A stretch of DNA of 32,000 nucleotides from Candidatus Omnitrophota bacterium (GTDB taxonomy: Bacteria; Omnitrophota; Gorgyraeia; 2-01-FULL-45-10), in the NCBI GenBank assembly GCA_023818895.1, contig JAMWCX010000001.1, forward strand, positions 569,789-601,788. Reading direction: 5' to 3'. This document shows positions 4,561 through 32,000 of the stretch, one piece after another. The notes below the pieces were generated by a model that saw only the letters and a list, made by a program, of their open reading frames with translations, was not told the DNA's origin and did not search any database. The number at the start of each line of letters is the position of its first letter. Position 1 is the stretch's first letter. The translations under genes and the position numbers were made by a program.

Positions 4561-4561
4561 C

Positions 4562-7756: not shown

Positions 7757-9214
7757 TTATCTAACGCGTATTGCGGATTTTAGGTATTTAAATAGGTGAA
7801 AACAACTCAAATTCCGATATATGGCATGCAGGCCGAGATTGGATCTACATTTTGAAACTAGGGTCTTTGCCATAAGGCTAATCATGGACCTCTTCCCTTT
7901 ATAGACATTGTAATCAAACCATATAAAAGCTTTCTGTATCTTCTTTTTAGGAAAGCCTGGCAGGTCAAGAACTGCCCTACATCTTTCAAGCTCTCCTGAA
8001 GGCATGCGTTTAAATAGTTCCTTTTTACGACATACATCATAGAGTTCAGTGCCAGGATAAGGGAAGAATATATGGGCAAACGCTTGATCGGGAAGACATT
8101 CTCTGTTTATCGCGATAGTCTCTTTAAAATCATCATAAGTTTCGCCGGGAACGCCTATTAGATTATAGAAACATATCTGGATACCATTTTGCCTCGCCAA
8201 GGCAACCGCCCTGATAATATCATTGTTCGAATAATCGCGCTTAAGAATCTCTTTCCTGACCCTTTCGCTTCCGGACTCAACACCTATCCTTACGAATTTA
8301 AAATTACTCTCCTTGAATAACCTAAAAAGGCCTGAGAAGTCTGATCCGCGAGTTATCCTGAGGTTTGTACCGAATAAAAGAGGCTCTTTTAGTGATGTAT
8401 TAACTCTCTTCAAGGCTGCACATAATTCATTCGCCCATGCCATATTCGCTCCTATCGTCTCAACCTCAAGGTATATTTGCTTTGTCCGCGGATAAGCTTC
8501 CACGATCATAATTATCTCCCGCGTGATGCTATCCACTGATCTAAGCCTCACGTATTGTCCTTGGGCAATCCTCCTGAGCGCGTGATTACAGCAATATGTA
8601 CAGTTAAAAGGGCATCCGCGGCCGAGAAGAACGGGTTGCCATACATCTTCTCCACCGGATATCCATTTTTGCCATATCTCTCTATCCGGAAAAGGCAGAC
8701 CGTCGATATCCTTTACGAAAGGCCTTGGATCGTTTTTTTCTACGGTGCCGTCTTTCATGATCCATAGATTTTGGATTCCCGATGGCACTTCTACCTTCGT
8801 AAGTTTCTCAGCAAGCTCAAGAGTGGGATATTCGCCTTCACCTATACATATGGCGTCGAAGGGTCCTTTCGCCACATCATTGGGGTTGAGCGATGCATGG
8901 GCTCCGCCGACAAGGAGGAAAAGTTCCGGATGCATTTTCTTTATATAACGGGCCGCTCTCTCGATAAAAGTATATTCACTAGTCACGGCGGTAAAACATA
9001 CTAGCCGCGGATTAAACCTCCCTATCGCCTCTTGGATCAATGTCTTATTGCGAGCTCCCAGCATCCTGCTCAATACCACAAGCTCTGTATTATGCCCTTG
9101 CGATTTTAGAAGAGACGAGATGTAAGAGATACCAAACTGCATCTGTTCTGGTGTGCGTAGAGGGCGCTCGGGGGTTGCAATATCATCTACTGAAGATATA
9201 AACAATATATGCAT
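7757..9214 (-). CDS. B12-binding-domain radical SAM enzyme (class B type)
   Basis: The N-terminal cobalamin-binding-like Rossmann segment is MHILFISSV...LVCFTAVTSEY...LLVGGAHAS. The radical SAM cluster motif is GRGCPFNCTYC (CxxxCxxC). The TIM-barrel segment is GVESGSERVRKEILKRDY...NLIGVPGET. Confidence 0.85.
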   Translation of the reverse strand: MHILFISSVDDIATPERPLRTPEQMQFGISYISSLLKSQGHNTELVVLSRMLGARNKTLIQEAIGRFNPRLVCFTAVTSEYTFIERAARYIKKMHPELFLLVGGAHASLNPNDVAKGPFDAICIGEGEYPTLELAEKLTKVEVPSGIQNLWIMKDGTVEKNDPRPFVKDIDGLPFPDREIWQKWISGGEDVWQPVLLGRGCPFNCTYCCNHALRRIAQGQYVRLRSVDSITREIIMIVEAYPRTKQIYLEVETIGANMAWANELCAALKRVNTSLKEPLLFGTNLRITRGSDFSGLFRLFKESNFKFVRIGVESGSERVRKEILKRDYSNNDIIRAVALARQNGIQICFYNLIGVPGETYDDFKETIAINRECLPDQAFAHIFFPYPGTELYDVCRKKELFKRMPSGELERCRAVLDLPGFPKKKIQKAFIWFDYNVYKGKRSMISLMAKTLVSKCRSNLGLHAIYRNLSCFHLFKYLKSAIRVR

Positions 9215-9217
9215 ATT

Positions 9218-10759
9218 TTATAATTCGTATTTTAGGCGTGGCATAAGCCATTTTATCATATCTCTTAATAAAGAAGAATCTACTAATTCTACCCAATGCC
9301 GCTTATCATAAGGGAGAGAAGCTATATATGAATTTATGTCTTTTGCATAAAGTTTGAAAAAAATATCATTCTCTGAATCATATACGTTTATATATTCTCT
9401 CACCTTGACTGCAACATCGTTTTTTGGATCCGTAAGCAGATTATTGGCGTATCTGAATCGTTTATTGATAGGCGCGCCGTTCGCCTGAGAACCTAACGCA
9501 AGTTTAAGAACAGGGCCGGCAACAAACCATTCTGACAAAAACTCGATATTGCTGATGGGGCCATATTTACTGTACTGGTTACCCGATATAAACACAATCT
9601 CAGTTCCGGAATATTCGGCAAGGTCCTTGTTGGTGGCCATTTTGTATATCACTGTTTGCTGATGCGCATTCCATGATTTCCAGTGGTCGGAGATGCCCAA
9701 GATAGCAAAAATGAAGACCGCAAATAAGATAGCGCCAATGCCGCGCTGAATACCAGCTGAGATGAGAAGATATACAACAAGTAATGACCCAAATATAGTT
9801 ACCCTGTTACCCAGATTAAAAGCCAATTGGGGATAAAGGCCGGTTAGCGATAACACAAAAAATGCCACTATAGTCATTGAAAAAAGGCTAATAACAAGTT
9901 TCGTATCACGCTGTGTTTTTATTTTATCATAAAGTGCGTAATAAAGACCCGTCGCCAATATACCGATAATAACCGAGGCAAATGAAAGTTGTACAAACGC
10001 ATAATATATTTTCAACCACATTGAAGGACCCAAGACCGCATCTGCAAATGTAGCCATTTGTAGAACAAACTGTTTAGCAATAGCATAAATATCGGGCCTC
10101 TTAGGAAGCTTGTCTACGCCTATACTAATCATCTTAGCTATTACGATATAATAGACACTATAGATAACGTTAGGAACTAGAAGAATAAAGCCTTTCTTTA
10201 CATGTCTATTTAAGACGGTTAGCATGAAAAGCGATACAGCTATTATAGGTGACCCATATGATATAAATGAACCTGCAAGCGCAAATAGGAATGCCGGCAG
10301 TAATTGCTCCCGCTGTGTCAAATAGTATGCATAGAGATAGAAAGCAAAAGATAATGTAAGATACTGAACCATGAACCAATACACGGTAGCATCGTGAGAC
10401 GGGAAAAACAAGAACAGAAAGGAGGTTAGCATTGCGTGTCGGTTATCAAAATAGATGCTGAAGAATTTGTAGATCATATAAAATGCCAAGATAATGTATA
10501 CGATCTTCATCACATCGACAATAGCGCTATTCCAGGCAGAGGCAAAATAATACCAGATATAGAAAAAGAGGTAGCCTAATGGAGTCTCGACGAACATTAT
10601 GGTGCTTTTTGGGATAAGCGCTTCTACAAGACTCTTCCCTTTAACACGTGCCATGATATCAAAATCATCGGACACCAGACCTGTATTCCACATGAGATAT
10701 ATGATAATAAGAATATATAAGAGGAAAAGAAGGCGATCGTTCTTCCAGAGATTTTCCAT
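9218..10759 (-). CDS. Polytopic inner-membrane protein with a C-terminal soluble domain; putative GT-C-fold (ArnT/PMT-like) glycosyltransferase
   Basis: The ORF track gives 9218-10798 with TTG at 10798. ATG at 10759 (MENLWKND) avoids a 32-nt overlap. By eye there are more than 10 hydrophobic helices. An acidic SDDFD motif follows the first helix, where GT-C enzymes carry their DxD/DDx motif. The last 150 or so residues are hydrophilic. The fold assignment is inference. Confidence 0.5.
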   Translation of the reverse strand: MENLWKNDRLLFLLYILIIIYLMWNTGLVSDDFDIMARVKGKSLVEALIPKSTIMFVETPLGYLFFYIWYYFASAWNSAIVDVMKIVYIILAFYMIYKFFSIYFDNRHAMLTSFLFLFFPSHDATVYWFMVQYLTLSFAFYLYAYYLTQREQLLPAFLFALAGSFISYGSPIIAVSLFMLTVLNRHVKKGFILLVPNVIYSVYYIVIAKMISIGVDKLPKRPDIYAIAKQFVLQMATFADAVLGPSMWLKIYYAFVQLSFASVIIGILATGLYYALYDKIKTQRDTKLVISLFSMTIVAFFVLSLTGLYPQLAFNLGNRVTIFGSLLVVYLLISAGIQRGIGAILFAVFIFAILGISDHWKSWNAHQQTVIYKMATNKDLAEYSGTEIVFISGNQYSKYGPISNIEFLSEWFVAGPVLKLALGSQANGAPINKRFRYANNLLTDPKNDVAVKVREYINVYDSENDIFFKLYAKDINSYIASLPYDKRHWVELVDSSLLRDMIKWLMPRLKYEL

Positions 10760-10766
10760 AAATGCG

Positions 10767-12140
10767 TTAGCCACAGTTAAAATATTTATCGTAAACAATG
10801 GCGGGAATGATATTCATGGTAGACAATATCCTGAGAGGGATCCTAAGGAAGCGTATATAGTTATAGCTTGTGGGATAGTCACGAAATGTCTTTGGCGCCT
10901 CCGCGAGGTATTTGTCCAGCTCTTGGTGAGTTATTCCGAGTCTCTTTATACATAGATCAATGATTTTTGGATCCTCGATCACATATACTTCCTTAATTCT
11001 CTCTAATGCTTCGTCTCTGGTCATCTGGCCGGATCTTACTAGAGCCGAATAATTGAACTTACGCCTATCTATATTAAACTTTACACGCAGCACATACGTC
11101 ATGAGACTTTGGTAGAGATCATCGTAATAATGAGCTCCCGGATATCTCCACCCCAGTTCTGTTATAATGGCTTCCGCTTCCTTTCTCACATAGGGTACAT
11201 AATACAATAGAGGTACGGTTCTGATACCTCTCAATACAATATAATAAAAAAGATGCCATAGATCCAAATTAAACCCCGGGTCTTCGGGCTTCCATCTTCT
11301 CAGCTTAACAGAGCCAAATCTGCGATGAACATTTTTAAGATACTTACCGTCTAGGTAATTCCATACGAGCGGGCTGATACCTTCAGTTCTGAATGACTGG
11401 CCGATTATAACATATTTTACACCTTCCCTGAATGCGGTTCCATACAGAGCACTTGCTATTCCTATATCCGTCCCCTCCTCCATATCTGGAGTGGAAGCTT
11501 TTAGAAACGCTATCTTAATATCTTTCGATTCACGCCAATCAGAGGTAATGGTCCTAAGTTCCACCCCAAGCTTTGCGGTAACCTTACGCATATTCTCGCC
11601 GGCAACCGGATTACCGAATCCGTCATTAAAATGAACCGCTAACGGCCGTAATCCGAATTTCTTCAGGAGATATAGTGTGTAGGTACTGTCACGTCCGCCA
11701 CTCAAACCAGCGATACAATCAAACTTCTTCCCTATTCCGGATTTTTTTATCTTTTCGATGATCCTCGCAAGCTTACGGCTACCTTCAGGGGTAAGCGGAT
11801 ACGCGCGTTCCAATCTGTCGTGAAGCTTGCAGAAATTGCATTCACCCTTTTCATCAAATGTTACTCCTGGGACGGTAGTATCTATTATGCACCGCGAACA
11901 GACCTTATATTCCATTTTTGAGATAACCTTTTTTTGCAACATCTCTCCGATTTGCACGCCTTTTTCTATCCTGCGAGGTGCTTCAAATTCGGCAACAACA
12001 AGCTCCCCCGCAAACTCATTGTAGGGCCCCTGGGCGACAACGCCTTGACGACCGACAGCAAGTGAGCATCCTACCATCTTCCTGCCTTCGTATGGCCCAC
12101 CAACAATATAACCAACGCTAGTAGCACTAATAATTACCAA
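10767..12140 (-). CDS. N-acetyl-sugar amidotransferase (WbuX/PseA/WbpG family, PP-loop ATP pyrophosphatase); its 5' end encodes the C-terminal part of a C-N hydrolase domain
   Basis: From M76 (ATG at 11915) it has the zinc ribbon CSRCIIDTTVPGVTFDEKGECNFC, the PP-loop FDCIAGLSGGRDSTY, and the later YYDDLYQSLMTYVLRVKFNIDRRK...SGQMTRDEALE. Residues 1-55 (VIISATSVGYIVGGPYEGRKMVGCSLAVGRQGVVAQGPYNEFAGELVVAEFE) continue the nitrilase-superfamily fold of ORF 12134-12745. This frame stays open upstream to 12203. The tracked start is a TTG with no Shine-Dalgarno sequence. Confidence 0.85.
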   Translation of the reverse strand: MVIISATSVGYIVGGPYEGRKMVGCSLAVGRQGVVAQGPYNEFAGELVVAEFEAPRRIEKGVQIGEMLQKKVISKMEYKVCSRCIIDTTVPGVTFDEKGECNFCKLHDRLERAYPLTPEGSRKLARIIEKIKKSGIGKKFDCIAGLSGGRDSTYTLYLLKKFGLRPLAVHFNDGFGNPVAGENMRKVTAKLGVELRTITSDWRESKDIKIAFLKASTPDMEEGTDIGIASALYGTAFREGVKYVIIGQSFRTEGISPLVWNYLDGKYLKNVHRRFGSVKLRRWKPEDPGFNLDLWHLFYYIVLRGIRTVPLLYYVPYVRKEAEAIITELGWRYPGAHYYDDLYQSLMTYVLRVKFNIDRRKFNYSALVRSGQMTRDEALERIKEVYVIEDPKIIDLCIKRLGITHQELDKYLAEAPKTFRDYPTSYNYIRFLRIPLRILSTMNIIPAIVYDKYFNCG

Positions 12141-12745: not shown

Positions 12746-12752
12746 ATACCTT

Positions 12753-13142: not shown

Positions 13143-14086
13143 CAGTATCTCCCCTCTTTGGCATCGGATCTTTTCTCTATAAAAAAAAGTGGCCGTCTGC
13201 GGGATTCATCTAGATTGCGCCAAAGATATTCACCTATCACGCCCAGCGCGCTTGTATGCACACCGCATACCATCAGTATGGCGACTACTATAATCGCCGT
13301 CCCTGATACTACTCGGCCAACTACGGTCATTATGAACAAAATTAGCGCACAGAATATGCCGATAATCGTAATTGCCACACCTATCAGCATAATCAACATG
13401 AGCGGTAGGCCTGAGAAGGCAATAATCCAATCTCTGGCTAAAACGAGACGGGTCCGCAGACTCCACTTAGACCTCCCTGAGAGGCGATGGCGCCGCTTAT
13501 AACTTACGGAATCGTGCGTAAAGCCTGCCCATGCTATTAGGCCAAAAAGAGATGTATTTCGCTCGACGCAAGCATTGACGGCATTGACCATTTCTCGATC
13601 AAGGAAAAAGAAGTCAGCCTTTGAGAAATCTATCTTCTTGTATTCGGTGCGCGCAAGCCAGAAGAGGAGGCGATAAAAAATCTCGGCAGGCTTTCTGATG
13701 TGCCAGGGCTCTATTCTCCTGTCTTCCCTGAGCGCCCAAATCACAGAAGCGCCCTTTTTGTATTTTTCCAACATCTCTTTAAGCACTGAAGGATCATCCT
13801 GACCATCACCTGATATGCATAGCACCGCGTCACCCGTAACTTCACGCAAACCTGCCCGCAGAGCAGTATGACTGCCAGAGCGTCTGCTTAACCTAATACA
13901 CATAAGCCGCGAATCCTTAATGGCATCTACAACCTCATATGTTCTATCTGAAGAATGGTCATCAACAACTACCATCTGTACCTGTTTAATATCGGAAATA
14001 TTATCGACCATTGAAAATATTTCTTCAATTACTGAAACGATATTATCAGCTTCATTGTACACTGGTATTACAATAGATAAATTCAT
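13142..14086 (-). CDS. GT2 polyprenyl-phosphate glycosyltransferase (ArnC/GtrB/DPM1-like)
   Basis: Motifs are LSIVIPVYNEADNI, VVVDDHSSDRT, ISGDGQDDP and SGRSKWS. Two C-terminal TM helices are followed by GVIGEYLWRNLDESRRRPLFFI, which closely parallels the ArnC/GtrB C-terminus. The start is in an ATGA overlap. Confidence 0.85.
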   Translation of the reverse strand: MNLSIVIPVYNEADNIVSVIEEIFSMVDNISDIKQVQMVVVDDHSSDRTYEVVDAIKDSRLMCIRLSRRSGSHTALRAGLREVTGDAVLCISGDGQDDPSVLKEMLEKYKKGASVIWALREDRRIEPWHIRKPAEIFYRLLFWLARTEYKKIDFSKADFFFLDREMVNAVNACVERNTSLFGLIAWAGFTHDSVSYKRRHRLSGRSKWSLRTRLVLARDWIIAFSGLPLMLIMLIGVAITIIGIFCALILFIMTVVGRVVSGTAIIVVAILMVCGVHTSALGVIGEYLWRNLDESRRRPLFFIEKRSDAKEGRY

Positions 14087-14739
14087 TCTGATACCTCGCG
14101 AATTATTCTAGTAGGATTGCCTGCAACTATCATCTTGGAACCGACATCCTTGATAACAACTGAGCCTATTCCTATTAGAGCCTTTTTGCCTATCCTAATG
14201 CCATCCCGTATCTTGACACCGGAGCCGATATAAGCCACAGGCTCTATTACAACCCTTCCCGATACTGAAACGTTGGAACCTAAACAGCAATAATCGCCGA
14301 TTACACTATCGTGCGAAATAACGCTGTTAGGCAATATTACACAATGGTTCCCCACTTGAGCACCGCAGCTAACCACGACATTCTGCATCACTATCGTATT
14401 GTACCCTATTTTTGCGTCCGGCGCTAACGAGACAGATGGATGCAAGATTGTCGCAAAGCGCCTCTCTTCGATTTTAAGGTCGTCTATGATTTTTTTACGC
14501 GCCAAATAGGTGTTCGGATTGCCAGGCACGGCTAAAACACGCGCTTCTGGATACCGTTTAAGGATCTCTATGCCACCTAAAACTCTAACGCCACAGCTTT
14601 CTTTCCCTATCAAAGACCTATCATCGTCAATAAAACCAATTAAATCCCATTTCCTGCCAGTTTCATTTATTGCCATAACGCAGGAGGCCGCCTCTCTTGC
14701 GTTACCGCCGAACGGGAATATAATTAATTTATCAGGCAT
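14083..14739 (-). CDS. Sugar N-acyltransferase, NeuD/PglD family (left-handed beta-helix)
   Basis: An N-terminal Rossmann-like half (LIIFPFGGNAREA...LIGFIDDD) is followed by hexapeptide repeats (IGYNTIVMQNVVVSCGAQVGNHCVILPNSVISHDSVIGDYCCLGSNVSVSG) and ends AGNPTRIIR. Confidence 0.85.
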   Translation of the reverse strand: MPDKLIIFPFGGNAREAASCVMAINETGRKWDLIGFIDDDRSLIGKESCGVRVLGGIEILKRYPEARVLAVPGNPNTYLARKKIIDDLKIEERRFATILHPSVSLAPDAKIGYNTIVMQNVVVSCGAQVGNHCVILPNSVISHDSVIGDYCCLGSNVSVSGRVVIEPVAYIGSGVKIRDGIRIGKKALIGIGSVVIKDVGSKMIVAGNPTRIIREVSE

Positions 14740-15967
14740 TTTTCATAAGCTCCGCTATTTTTTCAACTTCCGACTCCTTAAGACCGTAGAATATAGGTAG
14801 CAGTATCACCGAGTCCCGCGCCTTCTCTGAATTCTTCAGATCAAAGTTGGAGTTCGCATAGGGCTTTTCCTGGTGCGCGTTCATAACGCCACGCCTTGTT
14901 GAAATGCCATTATCCAGAAGATACTGCATAAGATCGTCTCTACTGCGCGGCGCCCCATCTAATATTGTAACTGCATAGCTCTGCCAGTTCGTTCTGCAAT
15001 ATTCCGGTTCTTCGGGCAGTTTAAGCCAAGAAATTTTTTCAAGCTCGCGCCGATATAGATCAGCGATCTTCCTGCGATTTGCCATTATATTTGGTAGTTT
15101 CTTCAACTGCTCCATGCCAACAGCAGCCTGTATATCGGTCATCCTGTAATTGTAGCCTGTGGTCAGGTATTCTTCGAATATAACTTTGCCGGCCGCATGC
15201 CTTGCTGTGTCGGAAACGCTCATCCCATGGTGCCTTAAAAGCCTAAACACCTTATCGTATTCCGAATTATTCGTCGTGAGCATACCCCCGTCGCCTGTAG
15301 TGATAACCTTTCGAGGATGAAAACTAAAACATGCTATATCGCCGTGAGGCTTGCCGATTCTCTCCCAGCTTATGCCGCCATCCATCGATATTTCACTTCC
15401 CACCGCACAGGCAGCATCCTCAACAACCGGCAAATTGAACCGACGAGCAAGAGAAAGAATGGACTTCATATCAGCCGGCATTCCCATCTGGTGAACCGGC
15501 ATTATCGCCGCAACGCGTCCTGTACAATAAAAAACAACCGGCGACTGGCCCCTGGCGAGCTCTTTTGCCTTTTTATAATAAAGTCTTCCCTCTTTCTTCT
15601 CACACTCTTCTTTCAAGAATTTCTCGACCTCGATGCATGAAATATTAAATGTCCGGAGATCTATATCTACAAAGATCGGTTCTGCGCCGCATAGACGCAC
15701 GCTGTTGGCAGTCGCGATGAACGAGTGGCTTACAGTTATAACAACATCTCCTGGCCTGACTCCAACAGCAAGAAGTGCGAGATGCAAAGCCGTGGTACAA
15801 CTAGAGGTTGCACAAGCATATTCAGCACCTACGTAGCGACTAAACTCTTTTTCAAACCTCTCCACCCTTGGACCCTGTGTAACCCAACCGGAAAGTATGG
15901 CCTGGGTAGCAGCAATAGCTTCTTCCTCTCCTAAATATGGCCTTGCTATAGGGATCTTTTTAACCAT
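14732..15967 (-). CDS. PLP-dependent sugar aminotransferase, DegT/DnrJ/EryC1/StrS family (WbpE/ArnB-like)
   Basis: Landmarks are IARPYLGEEEAIAATQAILSGWVTQGPRVERFE, SSCTTALHLAL, and the lysine context FSFHPRKVITTGDGGML. It carries an insertion of about 40 aa (KEECEKKEGRLYYKKAKELARGQ) relative to typical members as I recall them. Confidence 0.85.
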   Translation of the reverse strand: MVKKIPIARPYLGEEEAIAATQAILSGWVTQGPRVERFEKEFSRYVGAEYACATSSCTTALHLALLAVGVRPGDVVITVSHSFIATANSVRLCGAEPIFVDIDLRTFNISCIEVEKFLKEECEKKEGRLYYKKAKELARGQSPVVFYCTGRVAAIMPVHQMGMPADMKSILSLARRFNLPVVEDAACAVGSEISMDGGISWERIGKPHGDIACFSFHPRKVITTGDGGMLTTNNSEYDKVFRLLRHHGMSVSDTARHAAGKVIFEEYLTTGYNYRMTDIQAAVGMEQLKKLPNIMANRRKIADLYRRELEKISWLKLPEEPEYCRTNWQSYAVTILDGAPRSRDDLMQYLLDNGISTRRGVMNAHQEKPYANSNFDLKNSEKARDSVILLPIFYGLKESEVEKIAELMKNA

Positions 15968-17280: not shown

Positions 17281-18214
17281 AATACCTGTAAGAAAGCTTC
17301 AGCCCTTCCTTGAGCCCTATTTTAGGATCAAAACCTATGAGCCTCTTTGCTTTCTTGATATCAGGAATCCTTATTGCTATTTCGGTTCTTTTCATCTTTT
17401 TGAAGACTATCGGCACCCGTCCGCCAGTTACTTTTTTAACGAGACGCGCCAGCTCCAGCGTCGAGCACGCTTGCCCAGGATTTCCTATATTGAAGGCACC
17501 GCTCTTAATACCTTTTTTCCTTATAAGCGCCTCCACGGCGTCGATGCAGTCATCTATATAGCACCACGCTCTTATGGCAGAGCCGTTTCCGTTTATAATA
17601 ATCTGTTGCCCATTAGCAACCGATCGCAGGAAATTACTTATCGCTCCTTCCCCTGTTTGTCGCGGGCCATATATATTAAAAGGTCTTACCAAAAAAGCTT
17701 TGAAGCCATACTTTTCTCCGTATCTAACTACAAGGTTCTCTCCGGCTATTTTGCTTATTGCGTAACTCCATCTGTAGTCCGAAATAGGACCTATTTTATA
17801 AATCGATTCCTCATTGACCTTTATCGCTTTTTTACCATACACCTCACTTGTCGAAAAGTAAATAAATTTACTTATCCGATGCTTTCTACAAATCTCAAGA
17901 AGATTTATGGTTCCTATAATATTGACTCTGAGGGTCTCCGTTGGATCCTTGTAATAGTTAGACACACCGGCAATAGCGGCAAGATGTATTATTATATTAC
18001 AACTCTTCGCTGCTGCTTCAAGACGCTTCTTATCCAAGATATCGCCCTTGATGAATTTCACATTTCTATGCCGTCTCAACAGCGGAGCATCCTTCAGAGA
18101 ATTTCTCCGCAGGTTGTCATATAGGACAACTTTATGCCTTTCGCAAAACCTTTCCGCAAGGTGGGTACCTATGAATCCGGCACCGCCTGTAATCAATATA
18201 CGATGTTTTTTCAC
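17264..18214 (-). CDS. NAD-dependent nucleotide-sugar epimerase/dehydratase (extended SDR)
   Basis: GTG at 18214 is in a GTGA overlap. Motifs are ITGGAGFIGTHLAERF, STSEVYG, YAISK (YxxxK) and RPFNIYGPRQ. The specific reaction (4-epimerase or decarboxylase) cannot be called from motifs. Confidence 0.8.
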   Translation of the reverse strand: MKKHRILITGGAGFIGTHLAERFCERHKVVLYDNLRRNSLKDAPLLRRHRNVKFIKGDILDKKRLEAAAKSCNIIIHLAAIAGVSNYYKDPTETLRVNIIGTINLLEICRKHRISKFIYFSTSEVYGKKAIKVNEESIYKIGPISDYRWSYAISKIAGENLVVRYGEKYGFKAFLVRPFNIYGPRQTGEGAISNFLRSVANGQQIIINGNGSAIRAWCYIDDCIDAVEALIRKKGIKSGAFNIGNPGQACSTLELARLVKKVTGGRVPIVFKKMKRTEIAIRIPDIKKAKRLIGFDPKIGLKEGLKLSYRYYEKTR

Positions 18215-19709: not shown

Positions 19710-19739
19710 ATGGAACTCTCCGCTTTAAATATACGGTTT

Positions 19740-20485: not shown

Positions 20486-20498
20486 CACATCAACCTTC

Positions 20499-23210: not shown

Positions 23211-23211
23211 T

Positions 23212-24543: not shown

Positions 24544-25502
24544 GAAATTATAGTTTTTCGTGAAATAATTCGTGACTTGCAGCTTTTAAACCAGCCTGCA
24601 AAAGTCGCCGCATCTATAAAAATCATCAAAAGCAAACCCAGCCCCAAATAAGCCGGCATATGAGTAGCCCGTAGATAAGACTCCCGCCGGTTTCCAAATA
24701 TCTTCTTCGCTATCCTTATCAAAAGACCGCCGACTAACACCGCGTAGAATATTGGCGACACAAAAATTCCCAAACCGATAAGAACAATCGCACCCATATA
24801 CATCACAAGCACAGGCACATGCCAGTTCCATATTCTTCCGGCATTGGCGTTATGGAAAGAATATGTAGAAAACCTATTCCATACGTCCTTAAAGTCTTTA
24901 GGAATATCCCAGGTAATTATCGCTGAAGGACAATATCTAACCTTAAAGTTGGCCTCGTCTATCTTCATCATGAAGGCCCTGTCCTCCCCGGCCCTCTCAT
25001 CCGGAAAGCCGCCAACCGCCTGCCATACCGATCTTCGCATAAGCGAAGAGGCGATCGAGCGCTTCCGCATCCATTTACCATCCACCATCACCTGCGGCTG
25101 CATCATAACGAGCGCCAGGCATTCTTTAAAAATCGTATCTGCCCGCGGGGCATAATGTCCGTATACAACATCCGCTGATGCTATCTCCATCTCCTCTGCC
25201 AGATTTTTAAGCCAGTCTTTGTCGAGCTCGATTCCGCCGTCCGTGAAAGCGATAATATCGCCCGATGCCTTCTCCACACCGATGTTTCTGGCCTTCCCCG
25301 GATAAGCAGATTCCGCCAAGATTATCAGCCTATTGTGCCTTCCCTCTTCGGCATCTTTGAGAAAGCTTACCGTAGCATCGGCCGATCCCGCATCGACAAA
25401 TATGCATTCGTCGGGACGACGTGTCTGTGCATCTATCGACCTCAAAAGCCTCCCAACGCTATTTTCCTCATCCTTTAAAGGCACGACCAGCGATATCTTC
25501 AA
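24540..25502 (-). CDS. GT2 glycosyltransferase with C-terminal transmembrane helices
   Basis: TTG at 25502 has a GGAGA Shine-Dalgarno sequence 6 nt upstream. Motifs are ISLVVPLKDEENSV, IFVDAGSADAT, FTDGG and GEDRAF. Three or more hydrophobic helices occupy the last 90 or so residues. Confidence 0.8.
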   Translation of the reverse strand: MKISLVVPLKDEENSVGRLLRSIDAQTRRPDECIFVDAGSADATVSFLKDAEEGRHNRLIILAESAYPGKARNIGVEKASGDIIAFTDGGIELDKDWLKNLAEEMEIASADVVYGHYAPRADTIFKECLALVMMQPQVMVDGKWMRKRSIASSLMRRSVWQAVGGFPDERAGEDRAFMMKIDEANFKVRYCPSAIITWDIPKDFKDVWNRFSTYSFHNANAGRIWNWHVPVLVMYMGAIVLIGLGIFVSPIFYAVLVGGLLIRIAKKIFGNRRESYLRATHMPAYLGLGLLLMIFIDAATFAGWFKSCKSRIISRKTIIS

Positions 25503-25512
25503 GCTGTCTCCA

Positions 25513-26832
25513 TCAGGACATAAAACATTTATTACAAAGGTCTATCTTGCCGCTCACCATAGCTTTGCGGAATTTCCTGTAGCGCTTAGAGTTCCATACC
25601 TTACCTATTGCTCCATTGTCAAGGCGCAGCCCCTTCAAAAGAGTCCCGTCAAAATCTATACAGCATGGCGTAAGATTCCCATTACTCATTATGGCTACAG
25701 ACCTATAAGGCCATCCGCACAAACTTTTCTTTTTTTCTATGGAGACCTTTTTCTTCTCTTTGCCGAAAGCAAGCCCGCCGTCGGTCGGTGCCAGCGCCGA
25801 GCCGGCCTCATCGCCAAGGTTGGTGAACTCATAAAAATAGCCCTTGAAGAGTATTCGGTCTGCCCCCAGTTCTTCCCTGAATTTCTTATATGAGTCAATC
25901 TGGCCTTCTGTATACTTGGTAACTACCATCTGCATCACTATCTCAGGTCTTACAAGAGCTCTTTCCTTTTTGGCCTTTGCGAGGTTTCTAACAAAATTAC
26001 ATACCTTGTCGAAATCGCCGCCTTGTCTGAAACTCTCATACGCCGAACTGTCTGTCCCATCCACAGAGATGCTTATCAAGTCGATATCGGTCTCGAGGAG
26101 CTTTGAGGCGATTTCAGTTCCCTCAGCGAAGCTTCCGTTTGTATGCAGCTCTATCCTCGTATAAGGGCCTGAGACATCACGCAGAGTTTTAAGAAAGCTG
26201 AATATTTTCTTGTTAAGAAGCGGCTCACCAAAAAGGAATGGATAGATAGCATCAACGTATCTAAAATAACTCCTGTTCTTATCTATTATCGTATCAAAGA
26301 CGCTTTCGGACAACAGCATAGCCGGCCTTGTAAGCTGGCTTAAGCCTGTAGGGCATGCTCTGCATTTTAAATTACAGACAGAGGCTGTCTCGATATAAAA
26401 TTCCGAGGGCCGTCCGATCCCTATAGACAGTTTGAGTTTTTTCGAAAGCTGTATAAGGAGTTTATTTATAAAATACGGCGCTTTCTTAAATATCAGGCCG
26501 ATAAACCCAATACGTCCAATCTCAGCGACAGAACCTTTCCCGGAAACATCTACCAAAAACAATTTTTTGTACTTAAGATGACTGGCAAGGATAATCGTAT
26601 TTAAACTGAAGCCGTGGTCAACTACAATCGCATCGAATTTCCTTCCCTTAAGCCCTGCAATACCTCCCTGCTCTATAACCTCAACGCCGAAATCGTATGC
26701 CTTCGCTATGCCTGGTGTGTTTTTGGTAATAAGTGTAATATGGCTATATGGCAGATATTTCTTCACAGCCTCAAGAGACGTGTAAATCCATGAATAATTT
26801 GATATGAGCGCTATATCTTTTACCTTATTCAT
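25513..26832 (-). CDS. Radical SAM enzyme with a SPASM/twitch-like C-terminal Cys-rich domain and an N-terminal extension of about 140 aa
   Basis: Cluster motif ETASVCNLKCRACPTG (CxxxCxxC), then FGEPLLN. The C-terminal cysteines are CGWPYRSVAIMSNGNLTPCC and CNKCF. The start is in an ATGA overlap. Confidence 0.8.
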   Translation of the reverse strand: MNKVKDIALISNYSWIYTSLEAVKKYLPYSHITLITKNTPGIAKAYDFGVEVIEQGGIAGLKGRKFDAIVVDHGFSLNTIILASHLKYKKLFLVDVSGKGSVAEIGRIGFIGLIFKKAPYFINKLLIQLSKKLKLSIGIGRPSEFYIETASVCNLKCRACPTGLSQLTRPAMLLSESVFDTIIDKNRSYFRYVDAIYPFLFGEPLLNKKIFSFLKTLRDVSGPYTRIELHTNGSFAEGTEIASKLLETDIDLISISVDGTDSSAYESFRQGGDFDKVCNFVRNLAKAKKERALVRPEIVMQMVVTKYTEGQIDSYKKFREELGADRILFKGYFYEFTNLGDEAGSALAPTDGGLAFGKEKKKVSIEKKKSLCGWPYRSVAIMSNGNLTPCCIDFDGTLLKGLRLDNGAIGKVWNSKRYRKFRKAMVSGKIDLCNKCFMS

Positions 26833-28316
26833 GCCGGAACATTGTCCTTCTTAAAAAATTCGGCCATAAAACTAAAAAGGCTTCTAATCTCCTCTTTCGT
26901 CACCGAAAGGAAAATCCAACCAAGCAAAACAGCAATCTTGATTAAAAAAGCAAGTAAGTCACCATCCGGTATAGCCAATAATAAAGCGAGAACTGCTAAA
27001 CTCAACACAAGGCTCCTTATATTATGTTTAGTAAATGAAAAACCTGTATCAAGATGGAAATATGCTGCCTGAGCTACGACAAATAATATATTCGTCAGGG
27101 CTATCGCTATATTGAAACTCCTGAAATCCACAAACGGAATAATTCTCAAGACGAAATAGGAGCCAAGAAGCGCTACATTGTACCCTATAGTCTGTATCCA
27201 TATAATACCATCGAACTTTTTCCGCGCGATTAACGAGGTATTAAACATGTAGAAAAGCACAAAGAATATGTCACCAATAGCCTGTATGGCTAAAAGATCG
27301 TAGGCCTTCATAAATTCGCTGGAGAAAAGTATGAGGATCATATATCTTCTGAATATTATGCATAAAGCCGCTATGGCAGTGGAAGCGAATATCGCAAACC
27401 GAGCAAACTCGTTCAAAGAGCGATTTACATCCTTTTTTTCACCTAAGGCGCACATCTCGGGATAGAAATGGCCCCAGAGGGCATTGGTGACAAAAGGAAG
27501 ATAATATGCGCTTAAAGCATACGCTACCTGAAAGAAACCGTTCGCCTCTATGCCGTATTGTTTCAGGAAAAGGCCTCGTATAAAAAGCATGACGAGCATT
27601 GTTACGTTCCCCGGTAGGAAAGACATCACGCTGTACTTAAAAAGCTCAACTGAAGCCGCTCTTGCTTCTCTTCCTCTAAGAAGCGAAAAATTATATCCTG
27701 GCACAAACGAAAGCCGCTTCCTCAAAAAATATAGCGAGAAAAGAAAGCTTAAAAGACCAAGCGTTATTATCTGAACGAATATGCCATCCAGCCCAAAGAA
27801 ATAAACCGAAACGACAAGAATCGCAAGGCCGACTGCTGTATACAATATGGTGAGTTTCGTATAATCAGCTATCTTGCCAAATGCATAGAATATCGGGGTG
27901 GCCATCCCTAGAAGATACACTGCAAAAGGAGTTGTAAGCGCGATCCCAACAAAATACGGCCAGTATTTGGCGTCGGCGAACACAAACTTTGTGAGCGGAA
28001 CGGTAAATGGCAAAACGGCTACTATAAAAAGCATCGCCGCTATGAACTGAAAGGTATTGGCGCTATCAGTCACCAAAGGAAGAGAGGCCCTGTCATTTTT
28101 TGCCAGTCTCTCAGACACGCCTTTTGTGACTCCCATAGCTATATTAAGAGAGCAAAGCTGCACGGCAAAGACTGAAAACATCTGGGCCTGACCGGCAAGG
28201 CCTATGCCTATAGGCCCAAGCTGCCAGGCAAGGAACTTGGCGCGTATCAAGCCAGCGAATATCTTGATCAGAGTCGCCACACCCATCACAGATGTTATTT
28301 TAAGTATCTTCTTCAT
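26829..28316 (-). CDS. wzx: Wzx-type oligosaccharide/polysaccharide flippase (MOP superfamily)
   Basis: 495 aa with about 12-14 TM helices. The N-terminus (KITSVMGVATLIKIFAGLIRAKFLAWQLGPIGIGLAGQ) is typical of polysaccharide-biosynthesis flippases. The start is in an ATGA overlap. Confidence 0.75.
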   Translation of the reverse strand: MKKILKITSVMGVATLIKIFAGLIRAKFLAWQLGPIGIGLAGQAQMFSVFAVQLCSLNIAMGVTKGVSERLAKNDRASLPLVTDSANTFQFIAAMLFIVAVLPFTVPLTKFVFADAKYWPYFVGIALTTPFAVYLLGMATPIFYAFGKIADYTKLTILYTAVGLAILVVSVYFFGLDGIFVQIITLGLLSFLFSLYFLRKRLSFVPGYNFSLLRGREARAASVELFKYSVMSFLPGNVTMLVMLFIRGLFLKQYGIEANGFFQVAYALSAYYLPFVTNALWGHFYPEMCALGEKKDVNRSLNEFARFAIFASTAIAALCIIFRRYMILILFSSEFMKAYDLLAIQAIGDIFFVLFYMFNTSLIARKKFDGIIWIQTIGYNVALLGSYFVLRIIPFVDFRSFNIAIALTNILFVVAQAAYFHLDTGFSFTKHNIRSLVLSLAVLALLLAIPDGDLLAFLIKIAVLLGWIFLSVTKEEIRSLFSFMAEFFKKDNVPA

Positions 28317-29626
28317 AATATGCCGATAAGCTCATCATATATCTTCTTTTCATTCTCAATAGAATACCTTCTGGGATAACGCGATTCGGCATACCGCCTG
28401 CAGTATGCCCGCATATCATTACGCAGAGACTCATTAGTCAGTATGGCAATCGCCTTTCTGGCAAGTTCATCAATATCACGAAACGGCACAATATAACCCA
28501 TCTTACCGTTTTCGATAAATTCCGGATGCCAGTCGAAATCATAGGCCACAATAGGCGTTGAAGCAAGCGCCGCTTCCAAAAGCGTAACGCCTCCATGCGG
28601 AGCCAGAAGCACATCTGCGGTGTAGAAAAGGTCTGTAAGCTCATCGTTGTTTCGGCTGCCAAGGAAAAGCACGCTATCGCCAAGGCCCATAAAATTCGCG
28701 GTCGTCTTTAACTCTTCTTTCATAGGACCGTCCCCCGCCATAACTAACACGGCGTTAGAAACAGCCTTCTTAACTAACGCCATTGCCCGGATGGCGTCTT
28801 CGGGATATTTCACGGGATGCAGTCTTCCCACATAAAACAGGGCCTTTTTACCTTCTATCCCCAGTTCTTTTCTTCGGTCTTTTCTTGAAGAGACCGCCGC
28901 ATAGTGCCTTTCGGCAACACGCACGCCGAAGGCTCTGTATTTCCCGGTACATGAGAAAGGAAAATAGGGGGAATTCCTGTAAAGATTCCTGTCGGCCATA
29001 ATCAAATTGGCGGCTCTCATAATAATCCTTTCGAAAAACCTCTCCAGGCCTCTGGAAAAGAATATCGGAGAAGACGTCTTGCCCAGCCCTTTATACTTCA
29101 TATCAAAATCCGAATTTAGATGAAGCACATACGGCAGTCTGAAAAGCCTCGCCATGATAAGGGCATTCAAACCCAAAAGATGCGGGTCATGCGATTTCAC
29201 AAAAGTTATATTAGAGCGCCATATAGTCCCGAAGGCTATACCAAGAGCCTTTAGCTCCACAAGCAGCATGCTGACCCTACAAAATCCAGCCTTATAGATC
29301 GCATTATCAGGGTGGGCAGCCAAGCTATGGAAGAACACCCTTTCATTCAAGATTTCAAATCTGTCATGCCCATTTGCGTAATCAAAATATATATAGTGGT
29401 CCTCATTAATGTAATCATCGAGGAAAAGATCCTCGAACATGCCGTCGTATTTATTGCTTATAAGATCGCATATAGCAAACGAAAAACGATTTACAGGCAT
29501 ACCTGGTTTAAAGCGCCTTTTGCCCAGAAGAGCCGACACTCCCATTACCGCCAATACACAGACGGCAAAGAGAATGGCAAACACGAAAAATGCTGCTATA
29601 TCCAATGCTTTTATTAATGTCTTCAT
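28313..29626 (-). CDS. GT4-family (GT-B) glycosyltransferase with an N-terminal membrane anchor
   Basis: It has an N-terminal TM helix (AAFFVFAILFAVCVLAVMGV). The C-terminal half has LFYVGRLHPVKY, VMAGDGP and APHGGVTLLEAALASTPIVAYD, the Glycos_transf_1 signature. Confidence 0.8.
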   Translation of the reverse strand: MKTLIKALDIAAFFVFAILFAVCVLAVMGVSALLGKRRFKPGMPVNRFSFAICDLISNKYDGMFEDLFLDDYINEDHYIYFDYANGHDRFEILNERVFFHSLAAHPDNAIYKAGFCRVSMLLVELKALGIAFGTIWRSNITFVKSHDPHLLGLNALIMARLFRLPYVLHLNSDFDMKYKGLGKTSSPIFFSRGLERFFERIIMRAANLIMADRNLYRNSPYFPFSCTGKYRAFGVRVAERHYAAVSSRKDRRKELGIEGKKALFYVGRLHPVKYPEDAIRAMALVKKAVSNAVLVMAGDGPMKEELKTTANFMGLGDSVLFLGSRNNDELTDLFYTADVLLAPHGGVTLLEAALASTPIVAYDFDWHPEFIENGKMGYIVPFRDIDELARKAIAILTNESLRNDMRAYCRRYAESRYPRRYSIENEKKIYDELIGIL

Positions 29627-30943
29627 CTATTGCCTACGAGCGCATAGCGACTCCAATATACAAGCCAGCTGGGCCGCCCTATTCCTCCTGGTGAGCCTGA
29701 TTATCTCCTCCGGATTACTTCTGCACTCAGTCGTTCCTCTGAGGATGTATTCCTCATATAATTGCAAAATAGCGTCTTTTAATTCGGTTTCATTTTCGGC
29801 GATCACACCGCTTTTGGTTCTTCTTATAAGATCCGCTACTATACCGCTTTTAGCCGCCATGGCCAGTATAGGCCTACCTGAGCCTATGTAGTCATAAAGC
29901 TTCGCTGAATACCATCCTTCCCCGCCTTCTCCCCGCCACTGGATAAAAAGAAGCGCGTCGGAAGATCTCTGTATCTCTAATGATCTTTCGTAAGAGACCA
30001 TGCCGGATTCCTTAACAATATCATGCAAACCGAAAGATTGCGATAGCTTCTCCACATCAGGTTTATCATAACCGAATACACACAAATAAAGTTCTATTTT
30101 CCGCCTATCGATCTTCCCATGCGCAACTAAATCAGCGACCGCTTTGAAAAAAGGCTCAAGCGGCTGATGATCTTTATGAAGTTTGCCGGTATAACTTATT
30201 GTAAACTTAGCATTTTTAGAAAAACCTATTCGCCCGAAATCCTCTTCGTCAAAACCATTTTCTATCACGCTGACCACGCCCCTATTATCTCTAAGCGACT
30301 TCTTAAGCCGCTCAGCCCAAGGCTCAGAGACCGTGATAACGGAATCGGCATCCTTCAAGATGCTCTTCTCCATTATTCTCAAAGCGGCTTTTTTTATAAA
30401 TGACCTGGGCCTGAAATGGTCCTCTGCCCAAAGATCGCGAAGATCAGCTACCCATGGCATTCCGGAAAGCGTTTTCAGTTTTCGCGCGACAAGATGGGCA
30501 GTTTCGGGTGGAGATGTGCTGAATATCACATCAACGCGCTCCTGCTCAATTATCCTCTTACCCTCCTCCAAGGCAAGAGAGTACCAGCCTATTTGGTCAT
30601 CAGGCATAGTCACCATTTCTCGCACAAACGAAACTCTTTTGGCCGGCTTTTTAGGACGCAAGTATGTCTTAAGCTCGCTATCGTCAGCGGTTGTAATTCT
30701 TGACACGATGCGCTTGAGGCTTCCTATAACATCCTTATAATCGGTCCTGAAAACCTTGGTTCCGTTGAGCGCGTATTCCGATTCCGCATCACCGGCCAAA
30801 GGCTTGCCCGCCTTAACGGTTAAAACAAGAGGACTCCACCCATACTCGGGCAGAAACTTCGCGAATTTGAAAGCCCTCATCGTTCCAACGCCTTCCATAG
30901 GAGGCCATGCGTAAGATATCATCAACACTTTTTTTACGCTCAT
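29627..30943 (-). CDS. GT4-like (GT-B) glycosyltransferase
   Basis: The N-terminus KVLMISYAWPPMEGVGTMRAFKFAKFLPEYGWSPLVLT is typical of a GT4 subfamily. The C-terminal SAKLYDYIGSGRPILAMA is a nucleotide-sugar binding half. Confidence 0.75.
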   Translation of the reverse strand: MSVKKVLMISYAWPPMEGVGTMRAFKFAKFLPEYGWSPLVLTVKAGKPLAGDAESEYALNGTKVFRTDYKDVIGSLKRIVSRITTADDSELKTYLRPKKPAKRVSFVREMVTMPDDQIGWYSLALEEGKRIIEQERVDVIFSTSPPETAHLVARKLKTLSGMPWVADLRDLWAEDHFRPRSFIKKAALRIMEKSILKDADSVITVSEPWAERLKKSLRDNRGVVSVIENGFDEEDFGRIGFSKNAKFTISYTGKLHKDHQPLEPFFKAVADLVAHGKIDRRKIELYLCVFGYDKPDVEKLSQSFGLHDIVKESGMVSYERSLEIQRSSDALLFIQWRGEGGEGWYSAKLYDYIGSGRPILAMAAKSGIVADLIRRTKSGVIAENETELKDAILQLYEEYILRGTTECRSNPEEIIRLTRRNRAAQLACILESLCARRQ

Positions 30944-30947
30944 AGAC

Positions 30948-31982
30948 CTAGATCAACACCCCTTTATTATCTGGACATACTCTGCATGGACCGGGAAGCT
31001 TTTCGGCGTCTGATGAGAGGAAGACGTTCCTCATGCGCCTGAAAAAAGCATTATTCCAAATCTCTTCATCGCGGTAGTTTCCATTGCCTTCCATATTTAA
31101 CAGCATCATAGAGCAACTGGAGATATTGCCATCCCCGTCAAACCGAACCTGCGAGAAGTGTGAAACGCACTTATTTTGACGCAACGTCTTATCTATAAGC
31201 GGCGGCAATGTGAATTTTCTCCGTACCAAAGGCGGATATGCGTTCATGATAGATCTAATTTCCCTTCTTATCTTTGGGTCGGCCATGAGAGAGCGCTCTT
31301 CAGCGGTCAGCCCTTCAACGGGACATGGCAGAAAATTACATAAGAAGGTATGGTCGACGCCCAGATTCAGGCTCGTTTGGATCATGTCTGGTATGTACTT
31401 ATAATTTTGCCTATCTACTATGAAAGACAACTTAACTTTAAGTGGCGAATTGCGCCTATTCCTCTCATCTACCAAATTCTTAATAGCTCGGTATATCTTG
31501 GCATAATAATTTTCATCCATACCTGTCATTCTATTGAATTCTTTAGCGTTATGGCCATTTATACTTATTGTTATCCCGTCTAATTTAGAATTTAAGATAT
31601 TGTCGAGATTATCCTCTATTGTAGTGCCGTTCGAGAAGGTCTTAACCGTCATATGACGCATCGCGGCATAGTCGACCATCTTAAAGAAGTTCTTATTAAG
31701 CATAGGTTCGCCGGAACCTATTATTTGCACATTCAACGCATTTTCAAAACGGTCTATGATCTCCTTGAACATGGCAAAATCCATGTCCCTGGTAGTCGTC
31801 TGGGCATGCTCGTAATCAGCTGGCACTCGTTTCGAGTGAGTTGGACACATATCGCACGAAAACGTGCAGCGTGAAGTCGCGACTATCGAGATGGTAACGG
31901 GATCATAGTCGAGAATCTCTTTCCGCGCTGACATTCTATACTTTAGGTAGTTGAACTTTTGCGAAAAGGTTAGATCTCGCAT
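30948..31982 (-). CDS. Radical SAM enzyme with a SPASM/twitch-like C-terminal domain
   Basis: The ORF track starts at TTG 31985; an ATG follows immediately at 31982. Cluster motif ATSRCTFSCDMCPT (CxxxCxxC), then GSGEPMLN. The C-terminal cysteines are CVSHFSQVRFDGDGNISSCS and PGPCRVCPDN. Confidence 0.8.
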   Translation of the reverse strand: MRDLTFSQKFNYLKYRMSARKEILDYDPVTISIVATSRCTFSCDMCPTHSKRVPADYEHAQTTTRDMDFAMFKEIIDRFENALNVQIIGSGEPMLNKNFFKMVDYAAMRHMTVKTFSNGTTIEDNLDNILNSKLDGITISINGHNAKEFNRMTGMDENYYAKIYRAIKNLVDERNRRNSPLKVKLSFIVDRQNYKYIPDMIQTSLNLGVDHTFLCNFLPCPVEGLTAEERSLMADPKIRREIRSIMNAYPPLVRRKFTLPPLIDKTLRQNKCVSHFSQVRFDGDGNISSCSMMLLNMEGNGNYRDEEIWNNAFFRRMRNVFLSSDAEKLPGPCRVCPDNKGVLI

Positions 31983-32000
31983 CAATACGCCCGCTATGTC

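Follow-up and report, generated by a model that had tools for sequence, protein, structure and literature searches.

Four radical SAM genes in one glycan locus

The window analysed here is a stretch of 32,000 nucleotides from a Candidatus Omnitrophota bacterium (GenBank assembly GCA_023818895.1, contig JAMWCX010000001.1, positions 569,789 to 601,788), in which four genes for radical S-adenosylmethionine (SAM) enzymes are embedded among glycan genes. Its approximately 29 open reading frames (ORFs) are all located on the minus strand, co-directional and tightly packed, and nearly all have glycan functions; intergenic gaps within the cluster are only 111 and 83 bp long. Proteins 100% identical to the products of the window are found in NCBI records of metagenome-assembled genomes named Candidatus Omnitrophica.

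The four radical SAM ORFs lie where the first-pass annotation had placed them, each with the CxxxCxxC motif quoted there. B12rSAM485 (7757..9214), a stand-alone protein of 485 amino acids (aa), carries CPFNCTYC at residue 201 and matches the Pfam domains Radical_SAM (E = 1.6e-21) and B12-binding (4.5e-15). The fusion protein (20499..23210, 903 aa) possesses CPYRCNFC at residue 214 (Radical_SAM 8.6e-25, B12-binding 1.3e-19) and continues into a retaining-type family 4 glycosyltransferase (GT4) domain (Glycos_transf_1 PF00534, residues 707-876, 2.1e-11, 44.1 bits against a gathering threshold of 26.4). SPASM439 (25513..26832) combines an N-terminal alpha/beta domain of about 135 aa, a radical SAM core with CNLKCRAC at residue 153 (2.4e-12) and a BtrN-like twitch domain. 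SPASM345 (30948..31985, 345 aa), the first visible gene of the cluster, has CTFSCDMC at residue 40 (4.6e-16) and a putatively twitch-type C-terminal domain; its ORF starts at TTG 31985, the earlier annotated start being ATG 31982.

All four proteins exceed the gathering threshold of Radical_SAM PF04055 (47.8-88.3 bits against 29.5), and the B12-binding domains (PF02310) N-terminal to the radical SAM core of B12rSAM485 and the fusion protein reach 56.0 and 70.7 bits against 32.1. The cysteines of the radical SAM cluster are invariant in the family alignments, C214, C218 and C221 of the fusion protein included. By composition, 0.04 CxxxCxxC motifs are expected in the 10,563 residues of 29 ORFs, against four observed, and none of 2000 within-protein shuffles reached four (maximum two); two further six-frame occurrences fall in non-coding frames. 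The similarity strings quoted earlier for the two B12-type domains are present and align. The pair had been called clear paralogues, a description that proved too strong: they are only 26% identical over 395 residues (E = 2e-34) and fall into separate orthogroups, i.e. their homology is at superfamily level.

The radical SAM–GT4 unit and the four families in related loci

Full-length homologues of the fusion protein number more than 45 (47-68% identity), mostly labelled as Omnitrophota or from unlabelled metagenomes. At least eight related loci have the radical SAM and GT4 parts as adjacent genes in different frames, with overlaps of 4-14 bp. Alternation between fused and overlapping split forms is a hallmark of functional coupling; a class B radical SAM enzyme and this GT4 are thus kept functionally paired in either form. 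A search for radical SAM–GT4 ORFs of 700 aa or more was negative in 80 loci with distant radical SAM relatives, and the fused form accordingly seems to be restricted for the most part to an Omnitrophota-like lineage. The profile search of genome contigs with the family alignment recovered only such distant relatives of the radical SAM domain (27-37% identity), no orthologues. Glycosyltransferase (GT) counts among these loci (20 of 80) are not used as evidence, since tblastn annotation with the window proteins is too insensitive; locus L087, for example, has about six GTs by Pfam and two by tblastn. In four of the loci (L012, L068, L018, L036), the distant relatives (27-37% identity) form arrays of six to eight B12-radical SAM matches per approximately 11-24 kb.

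Two further architectures were observed. Locus L094 contains, from 19670 onward, a second, divergent radical SAM–GT-like ORF (873 aa, 31% identity to the fusion protein), besides a split radical SAM/GT4 pair. Some 30 protein clusters (P0083-P0120) of about 700 aa combine a related B12-radical SAM part, 34-39% identical to the N-terminal half of the fusion protein, with a class I SAM methyltransferase domain; the labelled ones belong to Deltaproteobacteria/Desulfobacteraceae. The radical SAM–methyltransferase fusion is a second recurrent architecture of this clade and parallels the adjacency of B12rSAM485 and a methyltransferase gene in the window.

The radical SAM/GT4 unit is part of a recurring block. 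Its order is GT4N – (methyltransferases) – GT1 – Wzx – GT2 – PMT_2 – [radical SAM~GT4] – (GT1) – transglutaminase-like 243-aa protein, and the GT/flippase block is syntenic in many related loci from independent samples, some of which keep only a part of it. In the window, the block begins with two GT4-family glycosyltransferases, GT4N (29627..30943, Glyco_transf_4 1.5e-11), with orthologues in L001, L003, L004, L090 and L093 (39-56% identity), and GT1 (28313..29626, Glycos_transf_1 1.6e-35), with orthologues in L001, L004 and L093 (54-63%). The Wzx-like flippase (26829..28316) has a sub-threshold match to NCBIfam WzxE (5.4e-29); its orthologues match Polysacc_synt_3 and are 52-53% identical in L001, L004 and L093. 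GT2_b (24540..25502, Glycos_transf_2 2.3e-21), a membrane-anchored family 2 glycosyltransferase (GT2) with hydrophobic segments at its C-terminus and orthologues of 38-56% identity in related loci, is likely a polyprenol-phosphate-sugar synthase partnering the membrane glycosyltransferase of the GT-C type that follows it. This PMT_2-type GT-C enzyme (23212..24543, PMT_2 6.2e-9) lies directly upstream of the fusion gene, and a homologue occupies the same position relative to the radical SAM/GT4 unit in L001, L004, L093, L096, L097, L101, L104, L108, L112 and L119. Downstream lies unk243 (19793..20524), a membrane-anchored and weakly transglutaminase-like protein (Transglut_core, E = 0.006, sub-threshold) with no significant family match in Pfam or NCBIfam. 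Its homologues (32-59% identity) recur downstream of the unit in L001, L004, L093-L097 and L112, while in L119 a protein with a weak Transglut_core match holds this place. GT2_b, the neighbour of SPASM439, has its top NCBIfam matches, both sub-threshold, in two GT2 families associated with radical SAM enzymes, MftF (87.9 bits) and TIGR04283 (57.7 bits), a GT of the arsenosugar pathway.

To compare radical SAM content, 14 loci anchored on the fusion protein, the window included, were taken over up to 22.7 kb and their radical SAM ORFs clustered at 40% identity or more. They contain one to six radical SAM genes each, which fall into 27 orthogroups. Four such genes per locus are typical of the lineage and unexceptional. 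Within the fetched flanks, orthologues of SPASM345 occur in four of the 14 loci, of SPASM439 in three and of B12rSAM485 in two; other loci have different B12-type and twitch-type enzymes in the same or other positions. In these loci, the four genes do not form a co-inherited unit: only the fused or paired radical SAM/GT4 is constant (partly because it served as search anchor), and the other three are patchy and replaced by other radical SAM genes. Such hypervariable content agrees with the equally hypervariable polysaccharide cassettes that Omnitrophota genomes are reported to contain (10.64898/2026.06.07.730766).

Among the related loci, none was found that keeps the glycan genes and lacks radical SAM genes. 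That the four are housekeeping or unrelated genes which came to lie among glycan genes by chance is hardly credible, being contradicted by the covalent GT4 fusion, the translationally coupled, overlapping split pairs, the synteny and the glycan context of the B12rSAM485 family in every phylum sampled. A role in glycan tailoring is preferred to chance adjacency on these same grounds.

The family of B12rSAM485 comprises more than 120 clusters, identical to 51% or more along their whole length and labelled as Omnitrophota, Planctomycetota, Margulisbacteria, Elusimicrobia, Pacearchaeota and Nanoarchaeota. All six other orthologue neighbourhoods examined (L004, L086, L087, L088, L120, L121), from at least four phyla, are glycan or nucleoside diphosphate (NDP)-sugar loci with GT2 and GT4 genes, Wzy_C, Wbp-type genes, NeuB, CMP-sugar synthetases and carbamoyltransferases, often accompanied by more B12 radical SAM genes. 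The immediate neighbours vary by locus. A trio of the membrane protein Mem526, the B12 radical SAM enzyme and a methyltransferase was considered as a conserved module and rejected, being present only in the window and L004. The cross-phylum conservation of B12rSAM485 suggests a substrate common to many different glycan loci. In the Planctomycetota-labelled L086 (5252-11458), a 54% identical orthologue follows genes for a CTP-transferase plus phosphoenolpyruvate mutase, a thiamine pyrophosphate-dependent decarboxylase, an iron-type alcohol dehydrogenase and a TagF-like transferase. This cassette follows the same logic as Fom1-Fom2-FomC-Fom3 in the fosfomycin pathway; by analogy, the glycan of L086 may carry a C-methylated phosphonate decoration; the other B12rSAM485 loci are without phosphonate genes.

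SPASM439 and SPASM345 had been described as SPASM/twitch-type. The twitch part of this label is consistent with their cysteine patterns, while the SPASM part is not: the CX2CX5CX3C segment of the seven-cysteine SPASM motif is absent from both families, which conserve five and four C-terminal cysteines. The Pfam SPASM model nevertheless scores 40.4 bits (3.8e-10) for SPASM439 and 20.7 bits (5.2e-4) for SPASM345, i.e. above and just below its gathering threshold of 21.5. Invariant C-terminal cysteines of the SPASM439 family are C372, C390, C391, C433 and C436; together with a match to BtrN residues 186-255, the twitch region (3.2e-9), and the predicted fold, they place SPASM439 in the twitch subclass with a predicted single auxiliary cluster. 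The SPASM345 family conserves C40, C44 and C47 as well as C273, C334 and C337, with C291 in at least 90% of members, and is classified as putatively twitch-type from the pattern C273/291/334/337.

The SPASM439 family is small, with only 15 clusters (48-55% identity). Its orthologues in L004 and L119 are always located directly after the flippase, and in L001 the gene is cleanly absent, flippase and GT2 abutting. The N-terminal domain of about 135 aa matched no Pfam family and no solved structure. SPASM345 has 92 cluster representatives at E ≤ 1e-30. Its orthologues (54-62% identity) always lie at the upstream edge of the locus, ahead of GT4N; the two genes adjoin in L003 and L093, and a B12-radical SAM gene separates them in L090. 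These three loci have an ORF of about 623-628 aa upstream of the SPASM345 orthologue; in L003, a gene for 623 aa that precedes the radical SAM genes contains GATase_7 and Asn_synthase domains (asparagine-synthase-type amidotransferase). The upstream neighbour of the window, beyond position 32000, may be a similar gene.

Nearest known enzymes and the proposed tailoring role

None of the four radical SAM proteins reaches a curated NCBIfam cutoff, the families whose established roles lie outside glycan metabolism included. The best models of the B12 proteins are HpnJ, BchE, ApyD and PhpK (70-171 bits against cutoffs of 481-750), those of the twitch proteins a tungsten-enzyme maturase and N_Twi_rSAM (61-100 bits against 170-380). 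The fusion protein and B12rSAM485 score 171.2 and 114 bits with HpnJ TIGR03471 (cutoff 577.6), 88.6 and 51.2 bits with the AprD4 family NF033070 (500), and 100.9 and 71.5 bits with MgmA TIGR04014 (360). The twitch proteins score 94.4 and 99.8 bits with TIGR04317 W_rSAM_matur, the best match of both (380), and 75 and 61.1 bits with N_Twi_rSAM NF033640 (170).

The model of the fusion protein (AlphaFold2, pLDDT 85.7) has an N-terminal half whose fold resembles TsrM, AprD4, MgmA, CysS and OxsB and also superposes on TokK in Foldseek. Its C-terminal half is modelled as a GT-B fold, with target-normalised TM-scores of 0.77-0.81 to MshA, HepE and BshA; fold and domain score together identify it as a retaining GT4. 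In a profile search of the PDB, MgmA (1.6e-29) and AprD4 (2.3e-29) are essentially tied as the closest solved structures to the B12 proteins.

AprD4 (PDB 6FD2), a radical SAM 1,2-diol dehydratase whose substrate in apramycin biosynthesis is an aminoglycoside sugar, is not known to use cobalamin. It gives the best target-normalised TM-scores (0.73-0.76), though its sequence alignment is limited to the radical SAM core (residues 167-396). HpnJ, a class B radical SAM enzyme of the hopanoid cyclitol ether pathway, is paired with the glycosyltransferase HpnI, and the transferred aminosugar is remodelled; HpnJ and AprD4 both act on aminosugars. This system differs in that HpnI is a GT2, not a GT4, and unfused, and hopanoid genes are absent from the window. 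MgmA/QCMT (PDB 9CCB, the methyl-coenzyme M reductase glutamine C-methyltransferase) shares the two-domain class B layout of the B12 proteins and is their closest solved structure by sequence (6.3e-20 and 1.7e-15) as well as by profile, with a fold similarity of 0.71 (target-normalised). It differs in having a protein substrate and no GT domain; 9CCB was identified as MgmA/QCMT via PMC11796369 and PMC12931638.

From these relatives arises the alternative that the B12-type enzymes are glycan-linked but act as AprD4-like diol dehydratases or HpnJ/OxsB-like ring-contraction or rearrangement enzymes, possibly cobalamin-free. The tie of AprD4 with MgmA by profile, its TM-scores and the rank of HpnJ as top NCBIfam model of both proteins speak for such chemistry, and class I methyltransferases adjoin relatives or are fused to them, so that methylation capacity is already there. 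Scores are, however, far below the HpnJ and AprD4 cutoffs, and the alignment of AprD4 covers the radical SAM core only, whereas MgmA, TokK and CysS align over the B12 domain as well. Moreover, most characterised class B enzymes are methyltransferases (PMC12931638). We therefore consider this alternative rather unlikely, if the most serious one. Cobalamin use, which had been taken as implied by the four enzymes, is plausible: the B12 domains are above Pfam gathering and the fold matches the true cobalamin enzymes TsrM, MgmA, CysS and OxsB. It is not implied, since AprD4, one of the two closest solved relatives, has a similar fold and is not known to use cobalamin.

GenK and GenD1 (gentamicin) and Fom3 (fosfomycin), compared by description only, share the N-terminal B12-binding domain and radical SAM core. 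They are cobalamin-dependent C-methyltransferases acting on unactivated sp3 carbons of glycosylated or nucleotide-activated sugars or small alcohols. Unlike the proteins studied here, they belong to antibiotic pathways, not to cell-envelope glycan loci, and no GT is known to be fused to any of them; the B12rSAM485 orthologue of L086 with its Fom1/Fom2/FomC-like cassette is a Fom-type likeness. Carbohydrates, gentamicin and fosfomycin are among the substrates named for class B enzymes (PMC12931638).

For SPASM439, the AlphaFold2 model (pLDDT 88.5) matches BlsE, CteB, BtrN (target-normalised TM-score 0.70), MoaA, anSME, SuiB and DesII. The C-x17-CC...CxxC pattern of its auxiliary cluster is shared with BtrN (PDB 4M7T), SpeY, HygY, NeoN, BlsE and DesII, all of which act on sugars or cyclitols. 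These enzymes belong to antibiotic pathways, are only 17-19% identical and lack the additional N-terminal domain of about 135 aa.

[quoted passage not shown] Most twitch/SPASM enzymes are maturases of peptides, the PMT_2 family is of the protein-mannosyltransferase type, and distant relatives of the B12 type occur in arrays of up to eight (L012), as in proteusin clusters; MgmA, the closest solved B12 relative, methylates a protein (PMC11796369). The RiPP version is rejected because the two gaps leave no room for a precursor gene; the window also has no RiPP recognition, protease or exporter genes, and the extensive NDP-sugar pathways with a Wzx flippase point to a lipid-linked polysaccharide instead. 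Peptide or protein modification is accordingly a quite improbable explanation, slightly more so than a lipid target.

A lipid target, which could be the polyprenol carrier, the anchor of a glycolipid or a lipid that spans the membrane, would make the GT4 domain a glycolipid synthase. It is suggested by the GT half of the fusion protein, whose profile matches are BshA, MshA, PimB' and PglA: glycolipid synthases are found in family GT4, and the half is similar to PimB', BshA and MshA. Class B radical SAM enzymes act on lipids, e.g. HpnP/R and the methylases of glycerol dialkyl glycerol tetraethers, and the ladderane-associated model TIGR04072 reaches 113.7 bits. Omnitrophota also encode Hbs/Mss lipid radical SAM homologues elsewhere (10.1101/2023.10.20.563219). 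Nevertheless, all lipid-family scores are far below cutoffs, and the window is without lipid-biosynthesis genes, its context being nucleotide-sugar synthesis, a Wzx flippase and GT-C enzymes. The hypervariability of the radical SAM genes, furthermore, resembles surface-glycan variation and not core lipid metabolism. We regard a lipid target as improbable.

On balance, the probable explanation is that the window represents a single long co-directional cell-envelope glycan locus, with the four radical SAM proteins as modular glycan-tailoring enzymes. The fusion protein would be a cytoplasmic bifunctional enzyme, the retaining GT4 domain of which adds a sugar to a lipid-linked glycan, whereupon the cobalamin-type radical SAM domain would modify an unactivated C-H of that sugar or of the nucleotide-sugar donor. 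By analogy, the radical reaction is most likely C-methylation through methylcobalamin: class B enzymes perform this reaction most often, and true cobalamin enzymes align with the B12 domain. AprD4-like dehydration or deoxygenation and HpnJ/OxsB-like rearrangement are live alternatives. B12rSAM485 would independently carry out another reaction of this general type. The twitch enzymes, presumably with one auxiliary [4Fe-4S] cluster each, may abstract hydrogen from a sugar carbinol carbon, and the outcome, by analogy with BtrN, SpeY, DesII and BlsE, could be ketone formation, epimerisation or decarboxylation. The three radical SAM enzymes outside the core would be interchangeable accessory modules, the gain and loss of which would vary the glycan from strain to strain, in much the way that aerobes vary their O-antigens by means of acetyl-, methyl- and glycosyltransferases. 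In this proposal, the domain content, the existence of fused and split forms, the synteny, the patchy occurrence and the position outside every curated family are direct observations, while the substrates, the use of cobalamin, the types of reaction and the sequence in which transfer and tailoring take place are inferred; the first-pass annotation had rightly held that no substrate can be read from the sequences.

Several points weigh against a tailoring role so defined. Sequence, profile and fold do not separate methyltransferase (MgmA) from dehydratase (AprD4) or rearrangement chemistry, and the pTM of 0.56 means that the relative orientation of the two domains of the fusion protein is predicted without confidence. 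For SPASM439, the peptide maturases CteB, anSME and SuiB score about as well as the sugar enzymes, and SPASM345 has no informative solved relative (best SkfB, E = 0.0097). The constancy of the radical SAM/GT4 unit is partly given by construction, the unit having been the search anchor. The window contains neither an initiating phosphoglycosyltransferase nor a polymerase, which leaves an O-antigen, a capsule, a glycoprotein and a glycolipid all as candidate products.

Radical SAM tailoring of sugars is so far known almost only from antibiotic pathways (gentamicin, apramycin, butirosin, blasticidin, desosamine), whereas the present genes lie in cell-envelope glycan loci. Our literature search found no characterised radical SAM enzyme from a polysaccharide, O-antigen or capsule locus, and a 2026 review of B12-dependent radical SAM enzymes mentions neither glycans nor polysaccharides. 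New here are the uncharacterised families, the radical SAM–GT4 architecture and the biological setting, with a conserved fusion, a family that keeps more than 50% identity between bacterial and archaeal phyla and dozens of interchangeable paralogues. We tentatively propose, as less likely than not, that a large and interchangeable radical SAM toolkit diversifies the surface glycans of anaerobic, mostly uncultivated bacteria and DPANN archaea, the core cobalamin-dependent radical SAM–GT enzyme C-alkylating or rearranging sugars on a growing lipid-linked glycan and giving rise to branched or C-modified surface sugars new to characterised polysaccharides. Should the enzymes act on glycans, they would represent an unexplored layer of surface-glycan chemistry in anaerobes, relevant to how episymbiotic Omnitrophota and DPANN archaea recognise hosts and are recognised by phages, and would provide new class B and twitch reactions, for which substrate candidates are predictable from the adjoining Wbp-like and Leg-like pathways.

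Further gene content of the window

The Wbp-like and Leg-like modules claimed previously are real according to Pfam and NCBIfam matches. The Wbp-like module (14083..19709) for a UDP-2,3-diacetamido-uronic acid precursor comprises WbpB, WbpD, a short-chain dehydrogenase/reductase (SDR), WbpA, WbpE and a second hexapeptide acyltransferase (Pfam GFO_IDH_MocA, Hexapep, Epimerase, UDPG_MGDP_dh, DegT); orthologues of WbpB and WbpD are 67-74% identical in L001, L093 and L094.

The segment 10767..14086 contains a PgfS/ArnC-like GT2 (PgfS match 1.9e-52, sub-threshold), a small membrane protein of 129 aa, a CN-hydrolase (CN_hydrolase 3e-30) and the N-acetyl-sugar amidotransferase WbuX (TIGR03573, 223.8 bits, above the cutoff of 203.2). 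The CN-hydrolase gene is frameshifted, with ORFs at 12134-12745 and 10767-12140 and the break near 12140-12215: the CN-hydrolase ORF spans only positions 13-177 of the 256 profile positions, and the missing approximately 70 C-terminal residues are found in the other frame, as the N-terminus of the WbuX ORF. Both parts are contiguous in a single frame in L036 and L059, and the intact product would be a fusion of a CN-hydrolase (glutaminase) with a PP-loop amidotransferase, i.e. a NadE-like layout. Positions 5634-12577 are 99.986% identical, without gaps, to a 6.9-kb contig of an independent assembly (L085, GCA_023818765.1) that has the same frame break, which may be real or a shared read error.

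Mem526 (9218..10798), a polytopic membrane protein with no Pfam or NCBIfam match, lies directly upstream of B12rSAM485 and has a 42% identical orthologue at the same position in L004. Downstream of B12rSAM485 lies MT_b (6926..7645, Methyltransf_23 3.5e-18), one of two class I SAM methyltransferases of the window, with a 46% identical orthologue in L004, likewise at the same position.

The Leg-like module with a PAPS (3'-phosphoadenosine 5'-phosphosulfate) synthase and CysQ (112..6346) includes a LegB-like dehydratase (471.2 bits, cutoff 475), the LegC aminotransferase (493.6 bits, above 420), a methyltransferase and a NeuD/PglB-type acetyltransferase (NeuD_NnaD, 215.8 bits, above 160.8). The PAPS synthase, bifunctional with APS kinase and ATP sulfurylase parts, and CysQ (3730-6346; Pfam ATP-sulfurylase, APS_kinase, Inositol_P) lie inside the glycan operon. 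No sulfotransferase is recognisable within the window; the two enzymes hint at a sulfated glycan, with the transferase encoded outside the window or among the unannotated proteins.

A MarR/TrmB-like winged-helix regulator (6350-6910, weak Pfam matches of 6.7e-5) is located mid-operon and has a 48% identical homologue in L112. An Rfam scan of the window detected neither riboswitches nor other RNAs. Between B12rSAM485 and the methyltransferase gene, the gap of 111 bp contains a strong sigma-70-like site on the minus strand (7688-7716, TTGACA-17-TATCAT with extended TG, 11 of 12 matches), which could be an internal promoter for the part of the cluster with the methyltransferase, regulator, PAPS and Leg-like genes.

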